From a virus (Duplodnaviria; Heunggongvirae; Uroviricota; Caudoviricetes), in the IMG/VR virus record IMGVR_UViG_2667527839_000010: a DNA stretch of 14,104 nucleotides. The stretch is one strand, 5' to 3'. Positions within the stretch are counted from its first letter, which is position 1; every line of letters begins with the position of its first letter. Shown here in pieces: positions 1-14,104 of this stretch. Made by a program: the position numbers and the translations under genes. Under the pieces are notes generated by a model. It did no database searches. It had not been told where the DNA came from and was given only the letters and a program-made list of their open reading frames with translations.

Positions 1-1263
1 ATGAAACTCAACGCTCGCCAGATAGAGACCGCAAAGCCGAAAGAGAAAGCTTATAAAATGGCTGATGGAGGTGGTTTGTATCTTGAGGTCTCCCCTAAAG
101 GTTCTAAGTACTGGCGCATGAAATATCGCCGCCCCTCTGACAAAAAGGAAGATCGACTCGCTTTTGGTGTATACCCGACGGTCACTTTGGCTGAAGCGCG
201 GGGTAAGCGCGATGCAGCAAAGAAATTGTTGTCTCAGGGTATTGACCCCAAAGCTGAGCAAAAGGGGGCACAAGCTGAAATTGAGGGGGCATATTTATTT
301 GAAACTATCGCAAGGCAATGGCACGCAAGTAACCTTACTTGGAGCGAAGATCATAGCCGTCGTGTTCTGCTGACACTTGAGCAGTATATTTTCCCCTCGA
401 TAGGTCAAATCGATGCCAGAACGTTGAGAACCAGCCAGCTTCTCAATCCAATCAAAGCTGTCGATACGGCGGGTAAACATGATGTCGCGCAGCGACTGAT
501 GCAGCGCGTAACCGCAATTATGCGTTTTGGTGTGCAGAATGACCTGCTTGAATCAAATCCTGCATGCGATATGGCTGGAGCGCTTTTAAGCGTTAAAGCA
601 ACCCACCACCCAGCACTACCCCCAAAAAGAATCCCTGAGCTTCTTGAAAGACTATCACGCTATAAAGGGCGACTAATGACACGGCTTGCCGTTGAATTAA
701 CGCTACTCACATTTATACGTTCAAGTGAGATGCGTTTTGCTCGCTGGAGTGAGGTTAACTTTGAACGAAGCGAGTGGACAATACCCGGAATTCGTAAGCC
801 TATTCCCGGCGTAAAACACTCTGAGCGTGGGATGAAGATGAAAACTGAACATATTGTTCCGCTTAGCAAACAAGCATTTGATATTTTTAAACGTTTACAT
901 GCCTTGAGTGGTAAAGGTGAGGTTATATTTCCCAGCGATCATGATCCTAAAAAAGTAATGAGTGAAAATACAGTAAATAACGCCTTACGTGTAATGGGAT
1001 ATGATACGAAAACTGAAGTATGTGGTCATGGGTTTAGAACTATGGCGCGTGGTGCGCTAAGTGAGTCGAAACTATGGAATGATGATGCCATTGAAAGACA
1101 GTTAAGCCACGTTGAACGAAAAAATGTGAAAGGTTCATATATGCATACTTCCGAATATCTTGAAGAAAGAAGATTAATGCTGCAATGGTGGGCTGATTAT
1201 ATTGATGCTAATAAGAATGGATCTGTCACACCATATGATTTTGCGCGTATGCATGGAAAATAA
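1..1263 (+). CDS. int: Tyrosine recombinase, P4-type integrase (complete, 420 aa)
   Basis: ORF begins at window base 1 with N-terminus MKLNARQIETAKPKEKAYKMADGGGLYLEV typical of P4-family integrases; C-terminal catalytic region has HGFRTMARGAL (HxxR) and a downstream Tyr region (GSYMHTSEY). TAA stop at 1261-1263. Nested ORFs 164-373, 295-480, 660-869 are frame shadows. Confidence 0.9.
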   Translation: MKLNARQIETAKPKEKAYKMADGGGLYLEVSPKGSKYWRMKYRRPSDKKEDRLAFGVYPTVTLAEARGKRDAAKKLLSQGIDPKAEQKGAQAEIEGAYLFETIARQWHASNLTWSEDHSRRVLLTLEQYIFPSIGQIDARTLRTSQLLNPIKAVDTAGKHDVAQRLMQRVTAIMRFGVQNDLLESNPACDMAGALLSVKATHHPALPPKRIPELLERLSRYKGRLMTRLAVELTLLTFIRSSEMRFARWSEVNFERSEWTIPGIRKPIPGVKHSERGMKMKTEHIVPLSKQAFDIFKRLHALSGKGEVIFPSDHDPKKVMSENTVNNALRVMGYDTKTEVCGHGFRTMARGALSESKLWNDDAIERQLSHVERKNVKGSYMHTSEYLEERRLMLQWWADYIDANKNGSVTPYDFARMHGK

Positions 1264-1292
1264 TTACCATTGGGGGCTGCGGAGAGATTTAA

Positions 1293-1931
1293 ATGAATAA
1301 TACTCAATTTGATAATAATTTGTTTTATTTTAATAGGTTAACTTACATAACGCCACACGAAGTGGCGCTTGCTATGAATGGTTTTGACTATGATACCGAA
1401 AATGATGAATTGACTGAGGTTCAATTAAAAGAGGTTATTAGATTAAGAAAGGCAATAACCAGAAATCTACAATTAATTAATGAATATAAAAACGTATCCG
1501 CCACGCAAAAAGTGGAGGCGAACTTATTATTAACTGCCGCTTATATCTTTCAGAGGGAAGGTATTGTACCTGTGGAGATTAAGGAGAGAATTGAGAACGC
1601 ATTACGACAACAGGTAAAAAATAAAGATTGGAGTGATATTCTAATGACGTTAGGAGGAAGTGAATTATATGAAGTTGGTAAAAAATTAAGGAGTAATGGT
1701 AGAGGGCAGTACAGAAAAGATGATGAGGATAATTATAGTTGTAAATTAATTTATTTACTAATTGAATTGCTTAAGAGACATGGAAAGGTAAGTTATAGCG
1801 ATAATAGTGTTATATATAATGATATTGTTTCTTTTTGTAATGAGAATGAGATTCTAATGAAAGGGGTTAAAAAAGCTACGTTTTATAAGAAAATAAAGCT
1901 GGGGAAAGACATTATAAAATACGGAGAGTAA
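1293..1931 (+). CDS. Hypothetical protein (212 aa), AT-rich, no recognisable motif; candidate accessory gene
   Basis: ATG at 1293 preceded by GGAGAG (1281-1286, 6 nt spacing). Strongly AT-rich and Lys/Asn/Ile-rich compared with flanking int and alpA, suggesting separate acquisition. No family assigned from sequence. Confidence 0.55.
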   Translation: MNNTQFDNNLFYFNRLTYITPHEVALAMNGFDYDTENDELTEVQLKEVIRLRKAITRNLQLINEYKNVSATQKVEANLLLTAAYIFQREGIVPVEIKERIENALRQQVKNKDWSDILMTLGGSELYEVGKKLRSNGRGQYRKDDEDNYSCKLIYLLIELLKRHGKVSYSDNSVIYNDIVSFCNENEILMKGVKKATFYKKIKLGKDIIKYGE

Positions 1932-1996
1932 ATTTATTAATTTTCTGGCTATCTCTCAATAGAAGGGCCACAAGAGGCTCTAACGGGCTATAGGGG

Positions 1997-2044
1997 GTAA
2001 TACGATGTAATATGGTGTAATACTGTGCTAATTCCTAGGTAATA
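1997..2044. repeat. Helically phased GTAATA direct repeats (3 copies at exact 10-bp spacing plus a 4th)
   Basis: GTAATA at 1997, 2007, 2017 and 2039 (gtaatacgat / gtaatatggt / gtaatactgt ... gtaatatgaa), in the intergenic region between the AT-rich ORF and alpA. Confidence 0.35.
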
Positions 2045-2307
2045 TGAATCGTTAAAATGCAATAATACCTTTTGACATATGATTTTTTGATTTTCCATCC
2101 TATCCATATGAATTCTATTGATTTTATTTTTTTTGTGCATTTCCTTCTCTCCGTGTTCTTTCATATGAATATTACTTCTTTTTTCAGTGGAGATTATTGT
2201 TTTTCAATAGAATCAATATTTGTCTTAATAGATTCCATTATCACTAGAATCACTTTTTCCCAGTGTTTAAAGTCACCGTGAACTTAAGTAGAACACGGAG
2301 TAACAAG

Positions 2308-2538
2308 ATGGAATATGCAAACAGCTTTTCAGATAATCAGACTCTTATCTCAGCAAAAGAGGTCTTAAGACGCGTTCAGCGTAGCAAGGCATGGCTTTAC
2401 AAACAGCTTGCAAACAATACATTTCCCCGTCCGGTGAAAATAGGAACTCGTGCAATTTCATTTGTTGAAAGCGAAGTTGATCACTGGATTCAAGAGCAAA
2501 TATATGCCTCTCGTGGTGAGCGATATGAAAATCACTAA
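2308..2538 (+). CDS. alpA: AlpA/Vis-family small DNA-binding regulator (excisionase-like), 76 aa
   Basis: MEYANSFSDNQTLISAKEVLRRVQRSKAWLYKQLANNTFPRPVKIGTRAISFVESEVDHWIQEQI matches the AlpA/Vis HTH pattern. ATG 2308 preceded by ACGGAG (2295-2300). The ORF track start at 2263 lacks an RBS and lies in AT-rich promoter DNA. Confidence 0.8.
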   Translation: MEYANSFSDNQTLISAKEVLRRVQRSKAWLYKQLANNTFPRPVKIGTRAISFVESEVDHWIQEQIYASRGERYENH

Positions 2539-2543
2539 TAAAA

Positions 2544-2571
2544 AAGCCCGACATAATGAATTTGTGGGCTT
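2544..2571. terminator. Hairpin between convergent alpA and the RHH gene, flanked by A/T runs
   Basis: aagccc (2544-2549) pairs with gggctt (2566-2571), with partial extension; the A-run at 2538-2543 reads as a T-run on the minus strand, so it most plausibly terminates the minus-strand RHH transcript. Confidence 0.4.
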
Positions 2572-2634
2572 AAAAATATTGTCGCTTACTGAAATTAACA
2601 TGGAAACAGAGAGAACGTCTGTTGGCTTCTCTAT

Positions 2635-2820
2635 TCAACTTCCTTGCTCTGGCTTATTTTTCCTGCGCTGTCGGCGTTTAATCTCGCCTTTTACAGCCGT
2701 AACAATGAATTGCGCTTTCGTTTCTCCATCTTCAAGGTTGCTTTCTAATTCTGCAACTACATCATGTGGGAAACGAGCATTAAGTTGCTGCGACTTGTTG
2801 TTAGTTGAACTCGTTGCCAT
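2635..2820 (-). CDS. Small ribbon-helix-helix (Arc/MetJ/CopG-like) DNA-binding protein, 61 aa
   Basis: MATSSTNNKSQQLNARFPHDVVAELESNLEDGETKAQFIVTAVKGEIKRRQRRKNK: short beta-strand (LNARFPHDVV) followed by two helices, basic tail. Strong SD on minus strand (AGGAG, 8 nt before ATG at 2820). Confidence 0.55.
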   Translation of the reverse strand: MATSSTNNKSQQLNARFPHDVVAELESNLEDGETKAQFIVTAVKGEIKRRQRRKNKPEQGS

Positions 2821-2841
2821 TACTGGATCTCCTCGCGTTAG

Positions 2842-2931
2842 GTGCGATTCAGTATATGCAAAAAAAATGATAATAAAAAGCTTGAAGTGCGATTCACTTA
2901 AGGGTAGCTTTAAAATTAAAGGTGCGATTCA
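2842..2931 (+). promoter_or_regulatory. Three direct repeats of GTGCGATTCA in the divergent promoter region (putative operator/iteron)
   Basis: GTGCGATTCA at 2842-2851, 2887-2896 and 2922-2931 (extended consensus aGGTGCGATTCAc), 22-110 bp upstream of the RHH start and upstream of the early operon. Confidence 0.5.
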
Positions 2932-3007
2932 CCTTGTGAGTGCGAAGCCCGACAGTGCAGCAACACTAACCGGGCTTCTGACCAATCCGCTAAATGAGGT
3001 AACGAAG

Positions 3008-3184
3008 ATGGCTAAACAGAAGTGTACCTGGTTATTTGCGGCGATCAACCGCAGTCAACGCAATGCCCGTCCTGTGATGTTAAGGATCACCGCAGATAAC
3101 GAGCGGTCAGCGCGGCGCAGACTTGCCCCGGACTATGTACTGAGCTTTGCCGGGCGCATTCCCTGCGGAGGTGAACATGCGTAA
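3008..3184 (+). CDS. Possible small leader ORF (58 aa) of the early operon
   Basis: ATG 3008 with GAGG at 2996-2999; its stop (TAA 3182-3184) overlaps the next start (ATG 3177), suggesting coupling. This is the only credible part of ORF-track 2450-3184, which is otherwise antisense to the RHH gene. No motif recognised. Confidence 0.3.
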   Translation: MAKQKCTWLFAAINRSQRNARPVMLRITADNERSARRRLAPDYVLSFAGRIPCGGEHA

Positions 3185-3536
3185 TTATCCGCACCCCGGC
3201 GAACGCTGGCAGCATGAACGTGGCTGGACGGTCACGATTATCCGATTAATAGAAGCCTCGCCCTCTGTGGCGCTGGTTAATCCTGAATTCAGCTGTGAAG
3301 TGCTGATACGTCATGACAGCGACAACCAGCTTTCTTCCTGCCCTCTGGCATGGTTTGAACAGCGGTATACGCGCCTGTTTGATGTACCGCTCTTGAAGCC
3401 TGCACCAGCTCCTGCTGGCGGTAGTGGTTCCGGCCCGCTGACACTGCATCCGTCTGTGCTATTTATCCGCTGGCGGGAGCGTAGCATACGGCGTTCTGCT
3501 GAGCCTGACGACGGTCACTATTCAAAGTTTCTCTGA
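3177..3536 (+). CDS. Hypothetical protein (119 aa), early operon
   Basis: ATG 3177 preceded by GGAGGTG (3167-3173). The track start at 3147 is a TTG without RBS. No family assigned. Confidence 0.6.
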   Translation: MRNYPHPGERWQHERGWTVTIIRLIEASPSVALVNPEFSCEVLIRHDSDNQLSSCPLAWFEQRYTRLFDVPLLKPAPAPAGGSGSGPLTLHPSVLFIRWRERSIRRSAEPDDGHYSKFL

Positions 3537-3567
3537 CAAAATACCGCTGAAAACGGAGTAATCCACG

Positions 3568-3852
3568 ATGAATATTTCAAACGGGCACAACGGTGCTCAG
3601 GGCCACACTTTGCCTGAAAAACACAATACCGGTGCTTTTGCCTATGGGTTGTCAGAGGACAGTTTCGGAAAACTGACCCGCGCAAGAAATGCCTGCGACA
3701 TGCTCCAGCTTCTCTTTTCTGAATACCCGTCTCAGGCCGGAGCACTGGACGCTGGCTGTGCGCATGGTGTCGCCGCGCTGATGGAGTACCTGCTGGCAGA
3801 TTTGACGGATATTGCACACAGCTGCGCACTGATTGAAGGAGGTGCCAGATGA
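3568..3852 (+). CDS. Hypothetical protein (94 aa), early operon
   Basis: ATG 3568 with GGAG at 3555-3558; stop overlaps the next start (ATGA at 3849-3852). Confidence 0.65.
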   Translation: MNISNGHNGAQGHTLPEKHNTGAFAYGLSEDSFGKLTRARNACDMLQLLFSEYPSQAGALDAGCAHGVAALMEYLLADLTDIAHSCALIEGGAR

Positions 3853-4232
3853 ACCAGCCGCAGGTTTCCATTTTCCCGGCAGAAATGACCACCGCGCTTT
3901 ACCGGCGGGCTATTGCTTCAGCATGGCGGCAGAAAATGCTGAACGAAACTGGCAGTGATCAGTATGGTCCTCACAGCCTGACGGTGGAGCGTATTGAAAT
4001 GGCCATTGCGCTGCATATCGAGTGCGTACTGATTAACGAGTACGGCGAAGCACAGGGCGCCGCTGCCGCGCTGGCACTGCTGACTGACATGCTGGAGCCG
4101 TCACTGCTGACCGCGCCGCCGGTACTGACCGCGCGCGGCTGTGAAGTGATGGCGGAGATGTACCGCACGCTTCCGGCGGCCTTTGATGACTTCTGCAGTA
4201 CCGGTGTGACGTTGTATCAGGGGGAAGTATGA
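3849..4232 (+). CDS. Hypothetical protein (127 aa), early operon immediately upstream of the primase
   Basis: ATG 3849 preceded by AGGAGG; stop overlaps the primase start (ATGA at 4229-4232). Confidence 0.65.
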   Translation: MNQPQVSIFPAEMTTALYRRAIASAWRQKMLNETGSDQYGPHSLTVERIEMAIALHIECVLINEYGEAQGAAAALALLTDMLEPSLLTAPPVLTARGCEVMAEMYRTLPAAFDDFCSTGVTLYQGEV

Positions 4233-6901
4233 CAATACAGACGGTTACGCAGATTTCAGCTGCCGCACGGGGGAAATGGCCCGTTATTCTCCAGATGCTG
4301 CGTATTGATGTACCTGAAAACGGCAGGCACGGTCCCTGCCCGAAATGTGGGGGCAAGGATCGTTTTCGCCTTGATGACCTTGACGGGCGCGGGACGTGGA
4401 TCTGCAGCCAGTGTGGCAATGGTGACGGTCTGGATCTGGTTAAGCTCGTAACCGGTTACAGCGTCAGAAAGGCTGCGCAGGAGGTGGCGCAGGTGCTTAA
4501 TGTGCCGGATGTGCAGGAACTGCCTGTTAAGCCTGCCAGACAAAAAGCCCCTAAACGCGACATGGGGCTTACCGTGGCGGCGCTGATGAAAGAGAGCCAC
4601 ACGGGAGAAAGCGCCTATCTGACAGGAAAAGGGTTCGCCGGATACCCGGCCTCTCTGACCGGAAGCGTGCAGCATATCAGCGGTAAGGATTTTCCTGCCG
4701 GTTCCCTGCTGTTACCACTCACGACCAACACCGGAGCCGTGACTGGTGCACAGCTTATCGCCCCGACGGGTGAAAAAAGCATACTGCCCGGCAGCACGAT
4801 GAAAGGCGCGTTTGTGTCGCTCAGCCCGTTACCGTCTGAACCACCGGTACAGGTGGTGATTACCGAAGGTTACGCTACGGCGCTGACGGTAAGTCAGCTC
4901 ACTGCCGGATGCGTAGTGGCTGCCATATCTGCGGGCAACCTGCCCAATGTGGCGCAGTCGCTGCGGGCACGCTGGCCTGAGGTAAAAATTATCATCGCCG
5001 GTGATAACGATTTTCAGGACGGAGGTGAGAATCCCGGCAGAGCCTTTGCTGAACGGGCGGCAAAAGCTGTTGGCGGCTGGATGACGCTGCCACCGGGAGA
5101 GATTAAGGCCGACTGGAATGACTTCCATCGGGAGCACGGTATTACCCGCGCCCGTGAAGCCTTTCGTAACGGTCTGGTGCTGTGCGGGGAGGGCCGCACG
5201 CAACTGCCGCACGGGTTCCGTCTTACCCAGGAATATCTCTGGTATGAAAAGCAGGTACAGCGCAACGGTGAGACGGAGATCCAGAACGTCAAAATATGCA
5301 GCCCGCTGCGCGTGACGGCAATCACCTGCGATGCCGATGGCGGTAACTTCGGACGACTGCTGGAATGGGAAGATACGTGGGGTGAGTGTCGCCGCTGGGC
5401 GATGCCGATGGAAATGCTGAGCGGCAGTGGTGAGGAACTGCGCCGGGTACTGCTGGTTAACGGGCTGTCTTATATCAGCACCACCGGTGAGGCACGCGCA
5501 CGCCTGATGGAATATATCTCACTGTGTAAACCGGAACGCCGCGTGACCTGCGTCAGTCGTACTGGCTGGCATGGTCAGGTTTACGTCCTGCAGGATGAGG
5601 TCAGCGGTGAAGGTGCAGAGGGTGTCATTCTCCAGACCACTTCCGTGCAGGGGCGTGATTTCCGCGTGTCGGGCACAACAGAGGAATGGCGGGAGCATGT
5701 ATCCCGCTACTGTACCGGCAACTCCCGCGTGGCATTTGCTGTCAGCCTGGCCTTTGCTGCACCACTGTTACGGCTGGTTGGTATGGACGGCGGCGGCTAC
5801 CACCTCAAAGGGGAATCGACAGACGGTAAGACCACCACCATGAAAGCAGCAACCTCCGTCTGCGGCGGGCCTGACTACTGGCAGACATGGCGGGCCACCG
5901 GCAACGCGCTGGAGGGATGCGCCAGCCGCCGCAACGATGCCGCCATGATGCTTGATGAGATCCGGGAAGTTGACGGACGCGAGGCAGGCAATATCGCCTA
6001 CATGCTGGCAAACGGTCAGGGCAAGGGCCGTGCCGGTACGGACGGTGAGCTGCGTACCCGTAAGCAGTGGCGCCTGTTGTTCTTTTCAACTGGCGAGTTG
6101 TCTCTGACCGAACATGCGGCAAAGGCCGGTGAGCGTACTTTTGCCGGGATGGAAGTCAGGATGATCCAGATCCCCAGCGATTCCGGGAAGTTTGGCGTTT
6201 TTGAGGAGCTGCACGGCTTCGACAGCGGCAAGGCTCTGGCAGAGCATCTTGAATGGGCCACGTCCTGCTACTACGGTTCGCCGTTCCGGGAGTGGCTGAA
6301 AGCACTGACCGCTGATCTTAACGGACTAACGGCACAGGCAAAATCGCTGATGAAGGAATATGCTGCCGCCCTGACTCCGAAAGATGCAGGCAATCAGGTG
6401 GGCCGGGCTGTGAACCGCTTTGCTCTGGTGGCGATGGCAGGTGAACTGGCAACCCGTCTGGGTATCACCGGCTGGCCTGAGGGTGAAGCACTGCGGGCAA
6501 CCCGCGTCTGCCTGAACGCATGGCTGAAAGATCGCGGGCACACCGCCAATCAGGAAGATATCGCCGCACTGGAGCAGGTTCGCAGTTTCTTTACCGCGAA
6601 TCAGTACAGCCGCTTTGCAGACTGGTATGACGAGCGCAACCGCCCCGGCAATATGGTGGGCTGGCGCAGGGTGGAGAAAGGCAGTACCGCGCAGGGCACG
6701 GAAGCTGTCACTACGTTCTATGTCATGCCGTCCGGCTGGAAAGAAATCTGCAGGGGATTTGACCCGCGCAAGGTGGCGCGTCTGTGCGCAGATCGTGGAT
6801 ACCTGCTGCCCTCCACTGATGGCAAACTCCAGACAACCATTCGCCCGCCAGAGATGAATCCCCGCAGGCTCTATGTCTTCAACAGCGAGGTGCCGGGTTA
6901 A
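4229..6901 (+). CDS. Replication primase-helicase, P4 alpha-like (zinc ribbon + TOPRIM + Walker A/B NTPase), 890 aa
   Basis: N-terminal CPKCGGKDRF...WICSQCG (CxxC..CxxC); TOPRIM-like VVITEGYATALTV and IIIAGDNDFQDGG; Walker A HLKGESTDGKTTTM and Walker B-like MMLDEIREV. Uniform coding-like composition over 2.7 kb; internal antisense ORFs are shadows. Confidence 0.9.
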   Translation: MTIQTVTQISAAARGKWPVILQMLRIDVPENGRHGPCPKCGGKDRFRLDDLDGRGTWICSQCGNGDGLDLVKLVTGYSVRKAAQEVAQVLNVPDVQELPVKPARQKAPKRDMGLTVAALMKESHTGESAYLTGKGFAGYPASLTGSVQHISGKDFPAGSLLLPLTTNTGAVTGAQLIAPTGEKSILPGSTMKGAFVSLSPLPSEPPVQVVITEGYATALTVSQLTAGCVVAAISAGNLPNVAQSLRARWPEVKIIIAGDNDFQDGGENPGRAFAERAAKAVGGWMTLPPGEIKADWNDFHREHGITRAREAFRNGLVLCGEGRTQLPHGFRLTQEYLWYEKQVQRNGETEIQNVKICSPLRVTAITCDADGGNFGRLLEWEDTWGECRRWAMPMEMLSGSGEELRRVLLVNGLSYISTTGEARARLMEYISLCKPERRVTCVSRTGWHGQVYVLQDEVSGEGAEGVILQTTSVQGRDFRVSGTTEEWREHVSRYCTGNSRVAFAVSLAFAAPLLRLVGMDGGGYHLKGESTDGKTTTMKAATSVCGGPDYWQTWRATGNALEGCASRRNDAAMMLDEIREVDGREAGNIAYMLANGQGKGRAGTDGELRTRKQWRLLFFSTGELSLTEHAAKAGERTFAGMEVRMIQIPSDSGKFGVFEELHGFDSGKALAEHLEWATSCYYGSPFREWLKALTADLNGLTAQAKSLMKEYAAALTPKDAGNQVGRAVNRFALVAMAGELATRLGITGWPEGEALRATRVCLNAWLKDRGHTANQEDIAALEQVRSFFTANQYSRFADWYDERNRPGNMVGWRRVEKGSTAQGTEAVTTFYVMPSGWKEICRGFDPRKVARLCADRGYLLPSTDGKLQTTIRPPEMNPRRLYVFNSEVPG

Positions 6902-6933
6902 GGCTTTGCGTGAGTCTTATTTATTAAGGGTAA

Positions 6934-7123
6934 CAGGTGAAACAGGTGGAACAACCGTATTTTACAGGGCTGAACCTGTTCCACCTTCTGAAATAGTGAG
7001 GTGGAACAGATGTAACGCCAGCCAATCCGCTGTTCCACCTTGTTACCCGCGATGTTCCACCGGTGCAGTGTATATAAATGCCTTATAAAACAAAGCTGTA
7101 ACACATGTTTCATCTGTTCCACC
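6934..7123. repeat. Iteron cluster: six perfect copies of TGTTCCACC in both orientations (putative ori/crr for the primase-helicase)
   Basis: TGTTCCACC at 6977-6985, 7031-7039, 7053-7061, 7115-7123; its complement GGTGGAACA at 6945-6953 and 7000-7008; degenerate copies at 6934-6944 and 7041-7048. Lies immediately 3' of the primase gene. Confidence 0.6.
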
Positions 7124-7211
7124 GCATCAGGGACATAAAGCAGACTGAAACAGAGGGCATTTTTATCTGGCTGGCTTTCATAGCCACGTCTGAATAACCG
7201 CAAGCGTCCGT

Positions 7212-7267
7212 TGTGCCAGCCACCACACACTGAGCACCGGTAGTGTGCTTGTGTCAGCCACGACACA
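7212..7267 (+). promoter_or_regulatory. Two tandem TGT-N12-ACA dyads upstream of the late operon (Ogr/Delta-type activator site candidates)
   Basis: TGT(7212-7214)-N12-ACA(7227-7229) and TGT(7250-7252)-N12-ACA(7265-7267), within 20-bp direct repeats ttgtgCcagccacCacacaC / ttgtgTcagccacGacacaA (17/20 identical), 35-90 bp upstream of the Sid-like start. Confidence 0.4.
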
Positions 7268-7301
7268 ATTGACGTAACGAACTAACCCGACAGGAGAAGT
7301 C

Positions 7302-8045
7302 ATGAACAACACCGCAGTGAATAACAACCTTTCCACTTTTCCGGCTGTAACGCAGCGGGCACTGGAAACCATGAACACAGCCAGAAACGCATGGCTTGAA
7401 GCACGTCGTCAGCAGAAAGCGGCAGCGGATAATATTGCGACAATCCGCCAGCGTCGCGCTGAAATGGAAGCCACGACGAACACACTGAATGAGGAGTGGC
7501 GCACGCTGTTTCGTGAAAGTCAGGGCGTGGTCTCAAAGGAAATGAAAAAACTGCGCACGGAAATTGCGCTGGGACGAGAAACGCTTGAGGATTTTGATGA
7601 GCTGCTGGCGGCTCAGGAAAGCGAAAATGCACTTTTGCCGCAGAAAGCTGCAGAATTAGCCGGAAAGTATATCCACGCGCATAACATTCTTGTGGATATT
7701 CGCGCAAAACAAATCTGGGAGGATTTTATGCAGTCGCATGGAAAAGCGCTTATTCAGACGCTGAGCCTGCTTAAATCCACAATGGGCCGGGAAGCCAGTG
7801 CCGTTGTGGGTGTGGTGAATTCAGTTAATGACCCGGACACAGTGCTGAAAGACTTTATTCATAAACATATCACCAGACCGGCTCTGGCTAACGATGCGAT
7901 GCCTGAGCAGGACCCGGTGTTTAAACTGGCGGGAGTTGCCCCGGATTATGCGGCGCGTCTGGATTTCAGTAATCAACTCTCTCCGGCAGCTATGCATAAA
8001 ATTAAGGTTCGTCAGGAACTTGCTGAGAAGGAGAAAGCAGTATGA
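7302..8045 (+). CDS. sid: Sid-like (P4 external scaffold / size-determination family), 247 aa
   Basis: ATG 7302 with AGGAG at 7292-7296. Size close to P4 Sid; shares N-terminal and central motifs with the Psu-like gene that follows (NAWLEARRQQKAA..., EDFMQSHGKALIQTL), consistent with the Sid/Psu paralogy. Family assignment is from remembered motifs and context, not alignment. Confidence 0.55.
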   Translation: MNNTAVNNNLSTFPAVTQRALETMNTARNAWLEARRQQKAAADNIATIRQRRAEMEATTNTLNEEWRTLFRESQGVVSKEMKKLRTEIALGRETLEDFDELLAAQESENALLPQKAAELAGKYIHAHNILVDIRAKQIWEDFMQSHGKALIQTLSLLKSTMGREASAVVGVVNSVNDPDTVLKDFIHKHITRPALANDAMPEQDPVFKLAGVAPDYAARLDFSNQLSPAAMHKIKVRQELAEKEKAV

Positions 8046-8593
8046 CGGCCCGAGGCACGCCTGACCAGGCACTTACCAGTTTTCGGAATGCCCGTATTCT
8101 GTGGGCCGGACATAATGAGAGCCGAAAAGCCATTGAACAACAGATAACATCTCTCCTCGCTGCCACAGAAAAACCAGCAGATTATGCCCGACAGCTCGAA
8201 TTACTGCGGGAACGTCTGGATGTGCTGAAATGGCAAATTAACTGTGCTGCGCGCGAATGCATTTACTCGCAGCATTTACTGATGGAGGCCTGCACAGAAG
8301 CCGCTCTCAGCAATTTTATGCAGGCGAATGGGGCAGCCCTGACATCTGCACTGGCTCCGTTCCTGAAGGGGCGCGGAGGGGTTGACGTTGCGTCCCGTAT
8401 ATTACGCAGTGCTCTGGTTCGCCAGCTGGCAATAACACCGCCTGAAATTGCCGGGGATTATCGTGAGATCCTGGATGAATCCGGTTTGATGCCTGACCCC
8501 GGGATGATTCGTGATTGCCAGGGTTCTTACACCCCGGCACAACATCTGCGTTTTCAGCAACGCCTGAATGACATTAACGATATACAGGAGTGA
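8042..8593 (+). CDS. psu: Psu-like (polarity suppression / capsid decoration family), 183 aa
   Basis: Start overlaps the Sid-like stop (ATGA at 8042-8045). Motifs LELLRERLDVLKWQINCAARECIYS, FMQANGAALTSALAP and YTPAQHLRFQQR resemble P4 Psu as I recall it. Confidence 0.6.
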   Translation: MTARGTPDQALTSFRNARILWAGHNESRKAIEQQITSLLAATEKPADYARQLELLRERLDVLKWQINCAARECIYSQHLLMEACTEAALSNFMQANGAALTSALAPFLKGRGGVDVASRILRSALVRQLAITPPEIAGDYREILDESGLMPDPGMIRDCQGSYTPAQHLRFQQRLNDINDIQE

Positions 8594-8598
8594 TATTA

Positions 8599-8871
8599 AT
8601 GGCACTTAAATGTCCGGAATGCGGTACAGTTGCACACGCCAGAACAGCAGCCTATGAAGCTCCGTCAGTTAAACGCTCGTGGTATCAGTGCCAGAATCTG
8701 GAATGTTCCTGCACATTTACGGCACTGGAGAGTGTGGATAAGATAATCATGAAACCCCGGCGCAATGAACAGCTATCAGACAAAGCACAATCCCCGGAAA
8801 AACAACAGAAAACGCTCAATCGCTATGGCTCCGCGTCAAAACTGTCAAGCCGTCAGCAGATTCCTGTCTGA
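8599..8871 (+). CDS. ogr: Ogr/Delta-family zinc-finger late transcription activator, 90 aa
   Basis: MALKCPECGTVAHARTAAYEAPSVKRSWYQCQNLECSCTF has the CxxC-N22-CxxC arrangement and HART/YQCQN signature of P2 Ogr / P4 Delta. ATG 8599 with AGGAG (8586-8590); the track GTG at 8590 overlaps the Psu-like stop. Confidence 0.85.
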   Translation: MALKCPECGTVAHARTAAYEAPSVKRSWYQCQNLECSCTFTALESVDKIIMKPRRNEQLSDKAQSPEKQQKTLNRYGSASKLSSRQQIPV

Positions 8872-9498: not shown

Positions 9499-10485
9499 GT
9501 GAGTGATTCTGCATATATGAATGCATTACAAGAGCAGTTTGGAGATTTGAAATATTCAAATTTCACTGTTCAGTTCATGCCTCCTATTATTTTTGTTTGT
9601 GGTGGGCCGATAAATTCCACTCCAATGAGTGTACGAGACCACATATTTACTTATGTAGCAGGCCACAAACCTGAATTGTCAGATTCTCTTATTTTAGCTG
9701 AGAACTTCCATGACTACTTCAGAGAGGGGGCATATTCAGATCTAATGAGCTTTGAAGATGATATTGCAAATATTTCAACATTAGTTGTTATCTGTTTAGA
9801 AAGTGCAGGTTCGTTAGTTGAGCTTGGATTATTTGTTAATAGGAAGTCTCTAGCTCAAAAATTGCATGTAGTCGCACCATTTGAGGAGATTGAGGGAAAT
9901 GAACGAAAAAATATTCCTGCTAGATCTTCTTTTATATATTTAGGCCCTTTGGAGTATCTTAAAAAAATAGATGAGGCCTCAGTATCAGTTTATCCATGGC
10001 CAAAATCGGATCGTATGAAATATGATGAGGTTGAGCTTATCTACCATGATATTCATTCTAGATTAAAACGTGTAAAAAAAACGGAGCGATATAACCCTGA
10101 AAATACTGGGCACCTAGCTATATTGATTTACGAAATAATCCTTTTATCAGAACCAATCAAGAAAAGCGAAATAGAGTGGGCACTATACTGTATGGATATA
10201 GATGTGCCACAAAAAATAATATCTCGTTTACTTTATTTGCTTGAAAAGATGAAATTAACCTCATCATTATCTTACAGTGGTACAGACTACTTTTATTCCC
10301 GAGGGCATAGAGAGAGTAAACTTAAATTTGGTATCAGTGCTAGTGGTAAAATAAAGGATTCTATGAATATTAAGGTTGCAATCCGACAATCTTACTTAAG
10401 TATGGATGCTAAAGATATGGACGAGACTGCAAAAAAAAGGAAAAATGCTCTAAATCAAATCAATATCGTGCGTGGAGGGGCTTAG
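9499..10485 (+). CDS. Retron effector: nucleoside 2-deoxyribosyltransferase-like (NDT-like) domain protein with a C-terminal putative DNA-binding region, 328 aa
   Basis: N-terminal PIIFVCGGP and STLVVICLESAGSLVELGLFV fit the NDT fold (Rossmann-like strand, then a conserved Glu in a VELG context); C-terminal half is a separate, helix-rich region. GTG start at 9499 with GGAG/AGGGGG upstream; alternative ATG at 9517. Stop TAG 10483-10485 abuts the RT start. Confidence 0.8.
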   Translation: MSDSAYMNALQEQFGDLKYSNFTVQFMPPIIFVCGGPINSTPMSVRDHIFTYVAGHKPELSDSLILAENFHDYFREGAYSDLMSFEDDIANISTLVVICLESAGSLVELGLFVNRKSLAQKLHVVAPFEEIEGNERKNIPARSSFIYLGPLEYLKKIDEASVSVYPWPKSDRMKYDEVELIYHDIHSRLKRVKKTERYNPENTGHLAILIYEIILLSEPIKKSEIEWALYCMDIDVPQKIISRLLYLLEKMKLTSSLSYSGTDYFYSRGHRESKLKFGISASGKIKDSMNIKVAIRQSYLSMDAKDMDETAKKRKNALNQINIVRGGA

Positions 10486-10486
10486 A

Positions 10487-11419
10487 ATGGAGTTGCTAAG
10501 TTATATTTCAAAAGGTCTTTTTCTTAGCGAAGAAGAGGCTAAAAGGTATATTGTTACTATTCCACGCAGATATAAAATTTATCCTATCGCCAAAAGAAAT
10601 GGTAATGGATATAGATTAATTGCACAACCAGCTAGGCAAGTTAAAGCCTTACAGAAGGTAGTAATCAATCATATGTTGGCTAATTTGAAAGTTCATGAAA
10701 ATGCTTTCGCTTATGAAGCCGATAAAAGTATTAGATCTAATGCGTTAATGCATTGTAATAATGATTATTTGCTTAAAATGGATTTTAAAAACTTTTTTAT
10801 GAGTATCAAACCCCATAATCTTTTATCTGTCTTAAAAGATTATGGCGTTGAACTAACTGATACTGATATCTTTGTTCTTAAAAATCTTTTCTTCTGGAAG
10901 TTAAGAAGAAATAGCCCATTACGCCTAAGTGTTGGAGCACCTTCTTCTCCCATTATTTCAAATGCAGTAATGTATTTCTTCGATGAGGAAATATCGAAAA
11001 GATGCAAGGATTTGGATATTACCTACTCAAGGTATGCTGATGATCTTACGTTTAGCACCAAAGTCAAAGGAGCTTTATTTGATGTTCCTAAGTTAGTAAG
11101 GGAAGTTCTTAACGTAGTAAATCTTAGGAATATTAAAATAAACCATGAGAAAACAGTTTTTACCTCAAGGAAGTTTAATAGACATGTAACTGGTGTAACT
11201 ATTACGACTGATGGTTATTTGTCTTTAGGTCGTGATAGAAAGCGTCTTTTAAGAAGTAAAATACATTATTACGTGTGTGGGGTTTTATCTGAGAAAGAAA
11301 TTCTAACCCTTAAAGGAGAATTAGGCTATGCGAAATTTATTGAACATAAATTCTTTACCTCCATGATTAAGAAATATGGGGATGATGTAATCAGCGAAAT
11401 TTCAAAATATGAAATTTAA
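10487..11419 (+). CDS. ret: Retron-type reverse transcriptase, 310 aa from ATG 10487 (315 aa if GTG 10472)
   Basis: Retron RT motifs: YRLIAQPARQVKALQKVV; LLKMDFKNFFMSI (cf. DxxxFFPSI); SVGAPSSPIISNAVMYFFD (cf. QGAPTSP); YSRYADDLTFS (YADD); NHEKT; VTGVTIT (retron-specific VTG). GGAGG at 10474-10478 precedes ATG 10487. AT-rich composition matches the effector gene. Confidence 0.9.
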   Translation: MELLSYISKGLFLSEEEAKRYIVTIPRRYKIYPIAKRNGNGYRLIAQPARQVKALQKVVINHMLANLKVHENAFAYEADKSIRSNALMHCNNDYLLKMDFKNFFMSIKPHNLLSVLKDYGVELTDTDIFVLKNLFFWKLRRNSPLRLSVGAPSSPIISNAVMYFFDEEISKRCKDLDITYSRYADDLTFSTKVKGALFDVPKLVREVLNVVNLRNIKINHEKTVFTSRKFNRHVTGVTITTDGYLSLGRDRKRLLRSKIHYYVCGVLSEKEILTLKGELGYAKFIEHKFFTSMIKKYGDDVISEISKYEI

Positions 11420-11664
11420 TAGCTTGTTGTCCTAATAAATCAGCATGACTTTATCTAGCTTGCGCAAGGTTGGTTCAGAGGTTTGGTTGTTCTGGTTAGG
11501 CTCTGTAAGACGGAACCTAACTAGGCAACTCTATCTTGCTAATTCATTTATTGTGCTAGTTAGCAACAATAAGATTTTGTTGGGGGCACAAAATGGGGCA
11601 CAAGTCATAAGCTATAAAATTTTTATCATCATGTTCAATGAGTTATATAGTTATTCTATTCCGG

Positions 11665-11696
11665 CCTTCGCACCTTCGCACCTTCGCACCTTCGCA
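11665..11696. repeat. Perfect tandem repeat (CCTTCGCA)x4 within a tRNA-Leu 3'-end-like sequence (putative degenerate attR)
   Basis: ccttcgca at 11665-11672, 11673-11680, 11681-11688, 11689-11696, preceded by ttctattccgg and followed by ccatcgg. The context TTCtAtTCCGGCCTTCG-CACC...A resembles the 3' end of E. coli tRNA-Leu(CAA) leuX (..TTCGAGTCCGGCCTTCGGCACCA) as I remember it. Confidence 0.85.
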
Positions 11697-11712
11697 CCAT
11701 CGGAACATCAAT

Positions 11713-11735
11713 AGACGTCAACGGACGTTTTTTTT
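11713..11735 (+). terminator. Short hairpin plus T8 run downstream of the retron/att region
   Basis: acgtc (11715-11719) / gacgt (11724-11728), 4-nt loop, then 8 T (11728-11735). The stem is short, so confidence is moderate. Confidence 0.4.
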
Positions 11736-12465: not shown

Positions 12466-13116
12466 ATGAATAAACTCCCCGATCATCTTCCTCGGCGGTA
12501 TATCATCAAAGCTATTCATTTATGGGATGCGGGAGAAACTCATCAGTTCCAGCCTGCACGGTTGTATGAGATTGAATATCATGGCCGACGTTACCCCTCG
12601 AAGGCGATTGCTGGTATCGCAGCGACATTGATGACGGGGACGCAATTTACCCCTGCGGATTTCACCGGCGGAATAAAATCTAAATGCGTCAAGCTACTTA
12701 TAGATCAGGGATTTCATATTCATCAGGATAAAGCCGCTGCGGCTCCCATAGCCGATGTTCTGTTCCCGGATGAGTTGCCGTCGCAGGGGACCTACGTTGA
12801 AGGTGCGGCGATAAAGGTGACGGTAAACCGCTATGAACGCGATAAAAAAGCTCGCGAGAAAGCAGTCGAACATCACGGATGCCAGTGCAACGTATGCGGC
12901 GTTGATCTGGTGAAGATCTATGGCGATATCGCTGAGGGTTTTATCCATATGCATCACCTGGTGCCGCTTTCAGCCATTAAAGAGGATTACCAGCTGGATC
13001 CAGTTAATGATTTACTTCCTGTGTGCCCTAATTGCCATGCGATGCTGCACCGGCGCAAACCACCGTTTACGCCGGAGGAGTTAAAAGCGCTGATGGATGC
13101 GAATAAATCAAATTAA
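12466..13116 (+). CDS. HNH endonuclease family protein (McrA-like C-terminal HNH nuclease with an N-terminal putative DNA-recognition domain), 216 aa
   Basis: C-terminal CQCNVCGVDL...FIHMHHLVPLS...DPVNDLLPVCPNCHAML matches the HNH zinc-finger nuclease motif. ATG 12466 with AAGGA (12453-12457). Confidence 0.8.
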   Translation: MNKLPDHLPRRYIIKAIHLWDAGETHQFQPARLYEIEYHGRRYPSKAIAGIAATLMTGTQFTPADFTGGIKSKCVKLLIDQGFHIHQDKAAAAPIADVLFPDELPSQGTYVEGAAIKVTVNRYERDKKAREKAVEHHGCQCNVCGVDLVKIYGDIAEGFIHMHHLVPLSAIKEDYQLDPVNDLLPVCPNCHAMLHRRKPPFTPEELKALMDANKSN

Positions 13117-13123
13117 TGAACGC

Positions 13124-14104
13124 TCACCTTTCGCGCCAAAACTGCAAAATTGCTTCTACAAACCTGTCAGAAATAATCCCCCGACGGGCTGCCGCGCTGA
13201 AATGACTGCTTCGCAGTGCCGTCGTCCAGTTCTCCGGTGACCGGTACGCTGAACCGTAATATCCCGTGCTTAAATCGTCCGGATCTTCATCAGGCGCGTT
13301 CGTCAGTCCTCTTTCACCTTGTTGCTGGAAGTCGACGAAAATAATATTGGCTAAAACATTATTTTGATAATTGCCATAAATAACTTCATACGCATGAGGG
13401 AAATTTTCTTTCCAGTACCAGGTGGTATCGCCGCAAAACCATGGTGCGTCAGTAATATTATTAAGCTGAGAATGGTATTGTTTTAGATCCCTACGAAAGG
13501 CTTCAACCATATGATTAAAGTGTTGAGGATGTGACGCGTAGTCACTGGTCATTAAGTCAAATTCGCCTTGCATCCAGCATACGCCGAGGAATTTGTTCTG
13601 CGGGTTTTTTACCAGTGCGGCTCGCGTTCTGCTGACTAAATCCTGGTATAGCGGAGTATCCGTTCCCCAACGACAAGCATCATGGCTGGCTCCGTGCCGT
13701 TCTGAATATGTCCCTTCGCTGCCCGCTGTAAAAGCCGATCCGCCACGGCAACATGGAACGATGAGAACCCCTGCATTATCAGGAATAAAGGGTAGTAATT
13801 TCCGTGCAATATGCAGTGCCTGGCCAACGGTGCCGTACTGTGTTTGATGATTCGTTGCCAGAGGATGGTGATAACCCTGCATATCCTGAACATCGTGTGG
13901 GCAGTGAGTCAGTGGAATAATGTCGTTAAAGTGACATGACGGGCCTCCGGGATGCGTATGCGCAAATCTCGCTAATTGTTTAATTCTGGGATGAGGCGCA
14001 TCTTCACTGTCCGGTAATGGCAGTCCTTCGCCATACGCCATGGCATTAGACTGACCAGCAACGGTAAGAACATAGTAATAATCGGGCGATATTATTGCGT
14101 CCAT
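13124..14104 (-). CDS. nanS: SGNH-hydrolase family sialate O-acetylesterase (NanS/YjhS-like), 326 aa; start codon at the window edge
   Basis: N-terminal YYYVLTVAGQSNAMAYGEG (GQSN block of SGNH/sialate O-acetylesterase family); length 326 aa matches chromosomal NanS as I recall. Converges on the HNH gene with a 7-bp gap. Window ends at its ATG, so an upstream extension cannot be excluded. Confidence 0.75.
   Translation of the reverse strand: MDAIISPDYYYVLTVAGQSNAMAYGEGLPLPDSEDAPHPRIKQLARFAHTHPGGPSCHFNDIIPLTHCPHDVQDMQGYHHPLATNHQTQYGTVGQALHIARKLLPFIPDNAGVLIVPCCRGGSAFTAGSEGTYSERHGASHDACRWGTDTPLYQDLVSRTRAALVKNPQNKFLGVCWMQGEFDLMTSDYASHPQHFNHMVEAFRRDLKQYHSQLNNITDAPWFCGDTTWYWKENFPHAYEVIYGNYQNNVLANIIFVDFQQQGERGLTNAPDEDPDDLSTGYYGSAYRSPENWTTALRSSHFSAAARRGIISDRFVEAILQFWRER

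Follow-up and report, generated by a model that had tools for sequence, protein, structure and literature searches.

The window analysed here, a 14,104 bp stretch of DNA from a tailed-phage record (IMG/VR record IMGVR_UViG_2667527839_000010), includes a dense cluster of short repeated words directly 3′ of a primase-helicase gene, raising the question of what the cluster does and which protein reads it. The original prediction was that it is the cis-acting replication site for the adjacent primase-helicase, seen in the framework of the ori and crr sites of P4. The analysis described below indicates that the cluster (~6927–7123) is likely to be the single replication origin of the satellite, of the SaPI/PICI type, where the C-terminal domain of the primase-helicase (Pri-Rep) would bind, an AT-rich stretch would open and the fused P4-type primase would prime.

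The window covers an Escherichia coli P4-like satellite prophage adjoining tRNA-Leu, and the region was found at ≥90% identity in ~326 of 5426 complete E. coli genomes. The gene order on the plus strand is int, AlpA, small ORFs, primase-helicase, cluster, sid-psu-delta, retron and HNH, and the features around the cluster are as follows.

1–1263, plus strand, integrase gene
2263–2538, plus strand, AlpA-type HTH gene
between the AlpA-type HTH and primase-helicase genes, plus strand, small ORFs including an Icd-like gene and DUF5375
4229–6901, plus strand, Pri-Rep gene (890 aa), assigned from Pfam, identity to P4 alpha and PDB sequence matches
6641–6898, plus strand, coding region of the C-terminal winged-helix domain of Pri-Rep (aa ~805–890), with a putative recognition helix at aa 846–855 and a wing at aa 861–884
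7212–7229 and 7250–7267, plus strand, a pair of TGT-N12-ACA dyads ahead of the sid-like gene, 38 bp apart, neighbouring the proposed origin and outside it
7302–8045, plus strand, Sid-like gene
8042–8593, plus strand, Psu gene
8590–8871, plus strand, Delta/Ogr gene
9499–11419, plus strand, retron

The cargo 3′ of delta consists of a retron St85-family effector and reverse transcriptase (9499–11419) and an HNH endonuclease (12466–13116), and no retron ncRNA was detected by Rfam at the gathering threshold. A tandem 8 bp repeat, CCTTCGCA, present ~5 times at 11657–11709, lies within a small ORF (11445–11714) right after the retron reverse transcriptase gene. A fragment of a sialate O-acetylesterase (SASA) gene at 13124–14104 on the minus strand represents host flank (nan region), and the right end of the element therefore lies before ~13120.

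Six perfect copies of the word TGTTCCACC, four on the plus strand and two on the minus strand, were found at 6945–7123, where 0.07 would be expected by chance, and this number was reached in none of 200 shuffles. About six weaker copies, starting at 6927, accompany them, confirming the earlier count of six perfect 9-mers in both orientations with degenerate copies within 190 bp. The first iteron-like word begins 26 bp past the Pri-Rep stop codon (6899–6901), and the cluster is made up as follows.

6927–6935, minus strand, iteron-like word TGTTACCCT, a variant kept in close (class A) relatives (sequence and alignment)
6936–6944, minus strand, iteron TGTTTCACC with 1 mismatch, abutting the first perfect copy
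6945–6953, minus strand, perfect iteron TGTTCCACC (exact match)
6977–6985, plus strand, perfect iteron TGTTCCACC (exact match)
7000–7008, minus strand, perfect iteron TGTTCCACC (exact match)
7009–7017, minus strand, decayed iteron, top strand GATGTAACG, which is GGTGGAACG in most close relatives
7031–7039, plus strand, perfect iteron TGTTCCACC (exact match)
7041–7049, plus strand, iteron-like word TGTTACCCG, a variant largely kept in close relatives (sequence and alignment)
7053–7061, plus strand, perfect iteron TGTTCCACC (exact match)
7062–7094, no strand, AT-rich stretch between the iteron groups (70% A+T against 53% in the window)
7095–7103, minus strand, degenerate iteron TGTTACAGC with 2 mismatches
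7106–7114, plus strand, degenerate iteron TGTTTCATC with 2 mismatches, which is TGTTTCACC or TGTTCCACC in relatives
7115–7123, plus strand, perfect iteron TGTTCCACC (exact match)

The outer iteron copies form an imperfect 39 nt inverted repeat, giving the whole an imperfect dyad, and the AT-rich segment is a modest one (70% over 33 bp) with iterons on each side. Alignment with close relatives identified two conserved TGTTACCC words, at 6927–6935 (minus strand) and 7041–7049 (plus strand). When eight close relatives were compared over 6902–7200, variation was seen at 3 of 63 iteron columns versus 55 of 237 other columns (Fisher p = 5e-4). Chance does not account for the repeats, and their conservation exceeds that of the spacers. 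An unbiased scan of the whole window for clustered 8-mers revealed no second cluster of the TGTTCCACC word, and the one further copy, with 1 mismatch (12174), is within chance, in agreement with the earlier observation that the motif is absent from other intergenic regions and a second site is not found.

As an Rfam scan of the whole window returned no match, the region is not explained by a known RNA, and a promoter and terminator scan of 6800–7350 found neither. Two ORFs that cross the cluster (6873–7088, plus strand; 6898–7266, minus strand) were rejected as genes because 1 bp indels occur there among close relatives and the iterons alone are conserved. A packaging site of the P2/P4 cos type was likewise rejected, as the cos 19-mer was absent from the whole window at ≤3 mismatches.

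The adjacent Pri-Rep protein includes a Zn-ribbon and Toprim primase (aa ~30–305), a DUF927 helicase (aa 330–612), a helical linker and a C-terminal winged helix. Similarity to P4 alpha was confined to aa 5–316 (38% identity; E 1e-48, BLASTP), and the Zn-ribbon and Toprim Pfam families are common to the two proteins. In the helicase region (aa 415–643), the PDB sequence matches were to the SaPIbov1 Rep (8tch) and SCCmec Cch (5dgk). Pfam detected DUF927 but none of D5_N, DUF5906 and the Pox_D5 DNA-binding domain, which are carried by both P4 alpha and the EcCICFT073 Pri-Rep.

AlphaFold models of aa 640–890 and 795–890 were confident over the last 100 residues, and the modelled fold, with a helical bundle, strands, helices at 834–841 and 846–855 and a beta-hairpin at 869–884, is that of a winged helix. 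The best Foldseek matches in the PDB for aa 640–890 were 8tch (E 1.5e-5) and 5dgk, and the structure of the P4 alpha domain (1KA8) was not among the fold matches listed for either model. The sole Pfam hint for the C-terminal domain was HTH_56 ('Cch helix turn helix'), at a sub-threshold E of 0.04. Pri-Rep is a chimera: its Zn-ribbon/Toprim primase is of the P4-alpha type, and the DUF927 helicase and winged helix that follow are of the SaPIbov1 Rep/Cch type, with homology to SaPIbov1 Rep in both the helicase and the C-terminal domain. The winged helix (aa ~805–890) is the putative iteron-recognition domain.

The Pri-Rep family is widespread in Enterobacterales at 57–100% identity. From one-genome-per-species contigs, 55 loci were fetched, 51 of which had enough downstream sequence to be usable. 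The motif scan of the whole element and its relatives that had been proposed with the original prediction returned the one cluster in the window and clusters of the same layout 3′ of the homologous gene in 50 of the 51 related loci, whatever the next gene. In almost every locus, a repeated TGT-anchored word occupies the ~250 bp past the stop codon. The cluster directly follows the initiator gene in 47 relatives, and in three more (L039, L047 and L056) it follows an inserted recombinase gene, having the usual layout and 10–11 copies of TGTTCCCAC. The inserted gene, identified as tyrosine-recombinase-like from its N-terminal sequence alone, encodes ~327 aa and extends from +15 to +1004 past the primase stop codon. 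The sole locus of the 51 that lacks a cluster, L054, is a frameshifted copy from an insect symbiont.

The layout common to the classes, measured from the stop codon, is minus strand at ~30–50, plus strand at ~77, minus strand at ~100–115, plus strand at ~127–160, a gap, and plus strand at ~190–220, with the gap at the same position as the AT-rich stretch of the window. However, the word itself varies by lineage, with TGTTACACC, TGTTACCAG and TGTTCCCAC being examples that differ from that of the window and eight copies of TGTTACC making up the cluster in L016. All positions of one locus change together, and at least eight classes were distinguished, for which the words are listed below.

class A, TGTTCCACC, the class of the window
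class B, TGTTACACC
class C, TGTTACCC(C/A)
class D, TGTTACCA(G/C)
class E, TGTAACCNC
class F, TGTATCCAC
class G, TGTAGTACA
class H, TGTTCCCAC

In 46 relatives, the 4 kb on each side contained no second cluster. As sid, psu and delta lie 3′ of the cluster in the closer relatives only, the cluster travels with the primase gene and not with sid. Two loci, L050 and L051, match aa ~324–888 only and thus encode a Rep without the fused primase domain; full iteron clusters are present in both, and L051, at 65% identity, carries 11 perfect copies of TGTTCCACC, the word of the window. A 7 kb Salmonella record described as a plasmid, which carries a relative with class D iterons, proved to be one linear contig from a fragmented assembly, and it therefore gives no evidence for autonomous replication.

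The word varies together with the C-terminal domain of Pri-Rep. Five pairs of near-identical proteins with different words were compared over aa 330–890, with six frameshifted loci left out of the protein alignment. Of 63 differences, 36 fell in aa 800–890, which accounts for 91 of 561 positions (16% of the length; binomial p 2e-13), whereas in same-class pairs of similar closeness 22% of differences fell there. The Proteus pair L025/L028 (class B versus C) differs at 6 of 565 aligned residues, five of them in 807–887 and including T867P, and the Xenorhabdus pair L023/L024 (B versus D) has 13 differences, seven in 807–887, including K866R and T870S. L019 differs from L020 (E versus F) at 17 positions, 11 of which are in 809–878, and from L030 (E versus D) at 10 positions outside a deletion, eight of which are in 854–880. 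The remaining pair, L007/L046 (A versus B), has 17 differences with five at 827–878. Positions 846, 850 and 854 are on one face of the putative recognition (second) helix, 861–870 and 878 are in the wing, and four of the five pairs differ at position 870.

In their DNA, L025 and L028 are near-identical across the spacers and beyond +218, and the switch from ACACC to ACCC(N) affects every iteron. For such pairs, sliding identity falls over the last ~170 nt of the gene and the cluster, and recovers on both sides. A one-residue code was considered, as Lys866 accompanies C and Arg866 accompanies A at iteron position 8 in classes A–D, F and H. However, class G does not follow this code, and in L051 the word of the window goes with a C-terminal domain that is rather different; a simple residue code therefore does not apply. 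Because the coding region for the C-terminal domain adjoins the iterons, block exchange by recombination would equally yield the covariation; such exchange would still imply a functional module, but it makes inference at the level of single residues weaker.

The SaPI Reps are self-loading hexameric helicase-initiators in which a C-terminal winged helix recognises the iterons, and in SaPI origins 6–12 short iterons directly downstream of rep flank an AT-rich centre, an arrangement that probably accommodates two hexamers (PMC9371898; PMC7581432). Gram-negative PICIs have the same origin design, and a pri-rep-ori segment of EcCICFT073 sustained plasmid replication (PMC6092414). In SaPIbov1, SaPI1 and EcCICFT073, the iterons are in both orientations and their specificity is cognate to each element (PMC9371898; PMC6092414). 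The window likewise has a cluster immediately 3′ of the initiator gene, two opposed iteron sets flanking an AT-rich region and a Rep-type helicase that ends in a winged helix, and in its family the iteron and initiator vary together across at least eight classes, with their physical linkage as a caveat. It differs in iteron length (9 nt versus 5–6 nt in SaPIs) and in that Rep is fused to a P4-alpha-type Zn-ribbon/Toprim primase, unlike in SaPI/PICI, and the EcCICFT073 Pri-Rep belongs to the D5_N/DUF5906/Pox_D5 type, the iterons there being TGTCTACC. As the window matches each sequence-level feature of SaPI/PICI origins, the conclusion drawn is that the cluster is probably the single origin of the element.

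After induction, Pri-Rep would bind the TGTTCCACC iterons via its C-terminal winged helix, probably with hexamers flanking the AT-rich segment (7062–7094), which it would open as the predicted site of first strand opening. It would then load itself as the replicative helicase, with priming performed by its own Toprim primase domain and the remaining replication by the host polymerase. Binding, melting and self-loading are predicted steps, and a single site would be sufficient.

Another role for the repeats would be mainly regulatory, as operators used by Pri-Rep or a different protein of the element for the sid-psu-delta late promoter or for read-through from the primase gene, or in limiting copy number through origin pairing, rather than as the place where replication starts. 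The two TGT-N12-ACA dyads, which are similar to each other and conserved in close relatives, correspond to the same pair of dyads upstream of sid in P4, where they are 37 bp apart rather than 38 bp, and they are probably a P4 Psid-like late promoter for sid-psu-delta that would be activated by Delta/Ogr. The cluster lies ~90 bp upstream of these dyads and no terminator separates it from the primase gene (scan of 6800–7350), as a regulatory role would lead one to expect. Iterons commonly serve in both initiation and control in iteron plasmids, and regulation may be a function additional to the origin role. However, in relatives where the genes further downstream are unrelated to sid, psu and delta, the cluster is still found behind the primase gene, and the AT-rich gap with opposed iterons matches SaPI/PICI origins, making a purely regulatory role improbable.

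It is less probable still, and quite unlikely, that some other element or host protein, such as the AlpA-like regulator or a small protein, binds the repeats, and that the association with the C-terminus of the primase reflects physical linkage only. Such a protein would fit with the differences that the compared pairs also show in their upstream genes, and with linkage as a confounder of the covariation. However, the divergence is local, centring on the final ~170 nt of the primase gene and the cluster with higher identity on both sides, and the fold of the Pri-Rep C-terminal domain is a DNA-binding one, homologous to the domain with which SaPI Rep binds iterons. Furthermore, Rep and the iterons are retained in L050 and L051, which are without the usual set of upstream genes.

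The iteron TGTTCACC named earlier for P4 is correct, as the P4 record contains 11 copies, all inside the annotated ori and crr. This word was not found in the cluster of the window or downstream of the primase gene in the 51 relatives, and the two isolated copies in the window (3170 and 12265) are 9 kb apart and near the number expected by chance. P4 also has two separated cis sites that contain its iteron, whereas the window has a single cluster, as do relatives within 4 kb, and the D5_N/DUF5906 helicase and Pox_D5 (1KA8) domain of P4 alpha are not present in Pri-Rep; the alpha-type Zn-ribbon and Toprim primase is shared. In P4, crr is directly 3′ of alpha and ori is ~80 bp upstream of the sid dyads, and because the alpha operon is reversed in the window relative to P4, one cluster occupies both the crr and the ori positions. 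With three defining features of P4 ori/crr absent, the cluster is not a member of that system, and what the two have in common is an iteron-based origin in a P2-dependent satellite, a similar word (TGTTCACC and TGTTCCACC) and a homologous primase domain. A P4-type crr, that is, an accessory cis site working only with a separate ori elsewhere in the element, would suit the position immediately 3′ of an alpha-like gene, the resemblance of the word to TGTTCACC and the P4-like N-terminal primase domain, but it is hardly credible given that neither the window nor the 4 kb on each side in 46 relatives holds a second cluster, that the P4 word occurs only as the two isolated copies, that the helicase and DNA-binding domain differ from those of P4 alpha, and that the cluster is also where the P4 ori sits, upstream of the Psid-like dyads.

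Thus, the proposal of a cis-acting replication site for the adjacent primase-helicase is, at the sequence level, strongly supported by the relatives (clusters in 50 of 51 loci, concerted words and C-terminal differences), whereas its P4 frame has to be adjusted, since only the N-terminal primase is P4-like. The pairing of crr with ori also falls, as a single cluster points to an origin in its own right and not to a crr partnering a distant ori.

Two other systems share features with the proposed SaPI/PICI-type origin. SCCmec Cch has in common with Pri-Rep a DUF927 MCM-like helicase and an HTH_56-type C-terminal domain (PMC7581432), but it differs in host and element type and in having no fused primase, and no iteron origin is defined for Cch itself. 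Iteron plasmids of the RepA/pi/TrfA type resemble the window family in that an initiator acts on repeated sites beside an AT-rich unwinding element and in having incompatibility-like specificity classes. However, they have 17–22 bp tandem direct repeats, a non-helicase initiator and a need for host DnaA/DnaB/DnaC, none of which were seen here; in place of tandem repeats and a WH1-WH2 initiator, the window has dispersed 9 nt words in both orientations and a primase-helicase.

In the searchable literature, neither these iterons nor an origin for the Pri-Rep family were found to be described, and a full-text search for the iteron words yielded only primers and unrelated matches. A census of P4-like satellites makes no mention of ori, crr or iterons, and the origins of these elements do not feature in the large surveys consulted. 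As very probably a replication origin built in the manner of those of staphylococcal pathogenicity islands, the cluster is a feature of an ordinary kind that was previously undescribed in this satellite family. A large proportion of Enterobacterales genomes contain P4-like satellites, which carry defence systems (a retron in the present case). If the origin is as proposed, a widespread subgroup of them replicates via a staphylococcal-island-type initiator and a single origin, not via the P4 ori/crr scheme, and the modelling of minimal replicons and of copy-number behaviour would change for these elements. The near-identical initiators with different words offer a ready-made set in which site recognition by a winged helix could be mapped, and the same set would permit testing whether replicon specificity keeps satellites in one cell apart.

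Three genomes carry two elements of the family with different iteron classes in each (L004/L046, A and B; L013/L052, B and D; L012/L042, D and A). This is suggestive of the avoidance of replicon incompatibility, with the three cases not being significant. It is possible, though doubtful, that the initiator-origin pairs of the family form a natural allelic series, with very few winged-helix substitutions reprogramming origin recognition (such as T867P in the Proteus pair, or K866R and T870S in the Xenorhabdus pair), that the classes, at least eight in number, are driven by the need for co-resident satellites to avoid cross-talk, and that the element is a true hybrid of a PICI-type early region and replicon with a P4-type module for capsid hijacking.

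In its gene content, the element is a hybrid of a PICI-like early region and a P4-like late region. The early half, in the order int, AlpA HTH, YlcI/YnfO, Icd-like gene, small ORFs, pri-rep and ori, has an arrangement like that of the Gram-negative PICI EcCICFT073 (window 1–4232 versus L059 5931–11996), whereas the late half (sid, psu and delta) is P4-like and not PICI-like. The YlcI/YnfO gene is on the opposite strand, and all other early genes are co-directional. Iterons resembling TGT...ACC are found in P4 (TGTTCACC; L002 9310–9413), in EcCICFT073 (TGTCTACC; L059 12010–12240) and in the window family (TGTTCCACC and variants; 6927–7123), a likeness seen despite DNA-binding domains from different winged-helix families. 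The same element was also identified in E. coli strain 81 (L001; 7250–9052), where an 870 bp in-frame deletion inside the primase gene reduces the product to 600 aa from 890 aa, and the iteron cluster is intact despite this deletion.
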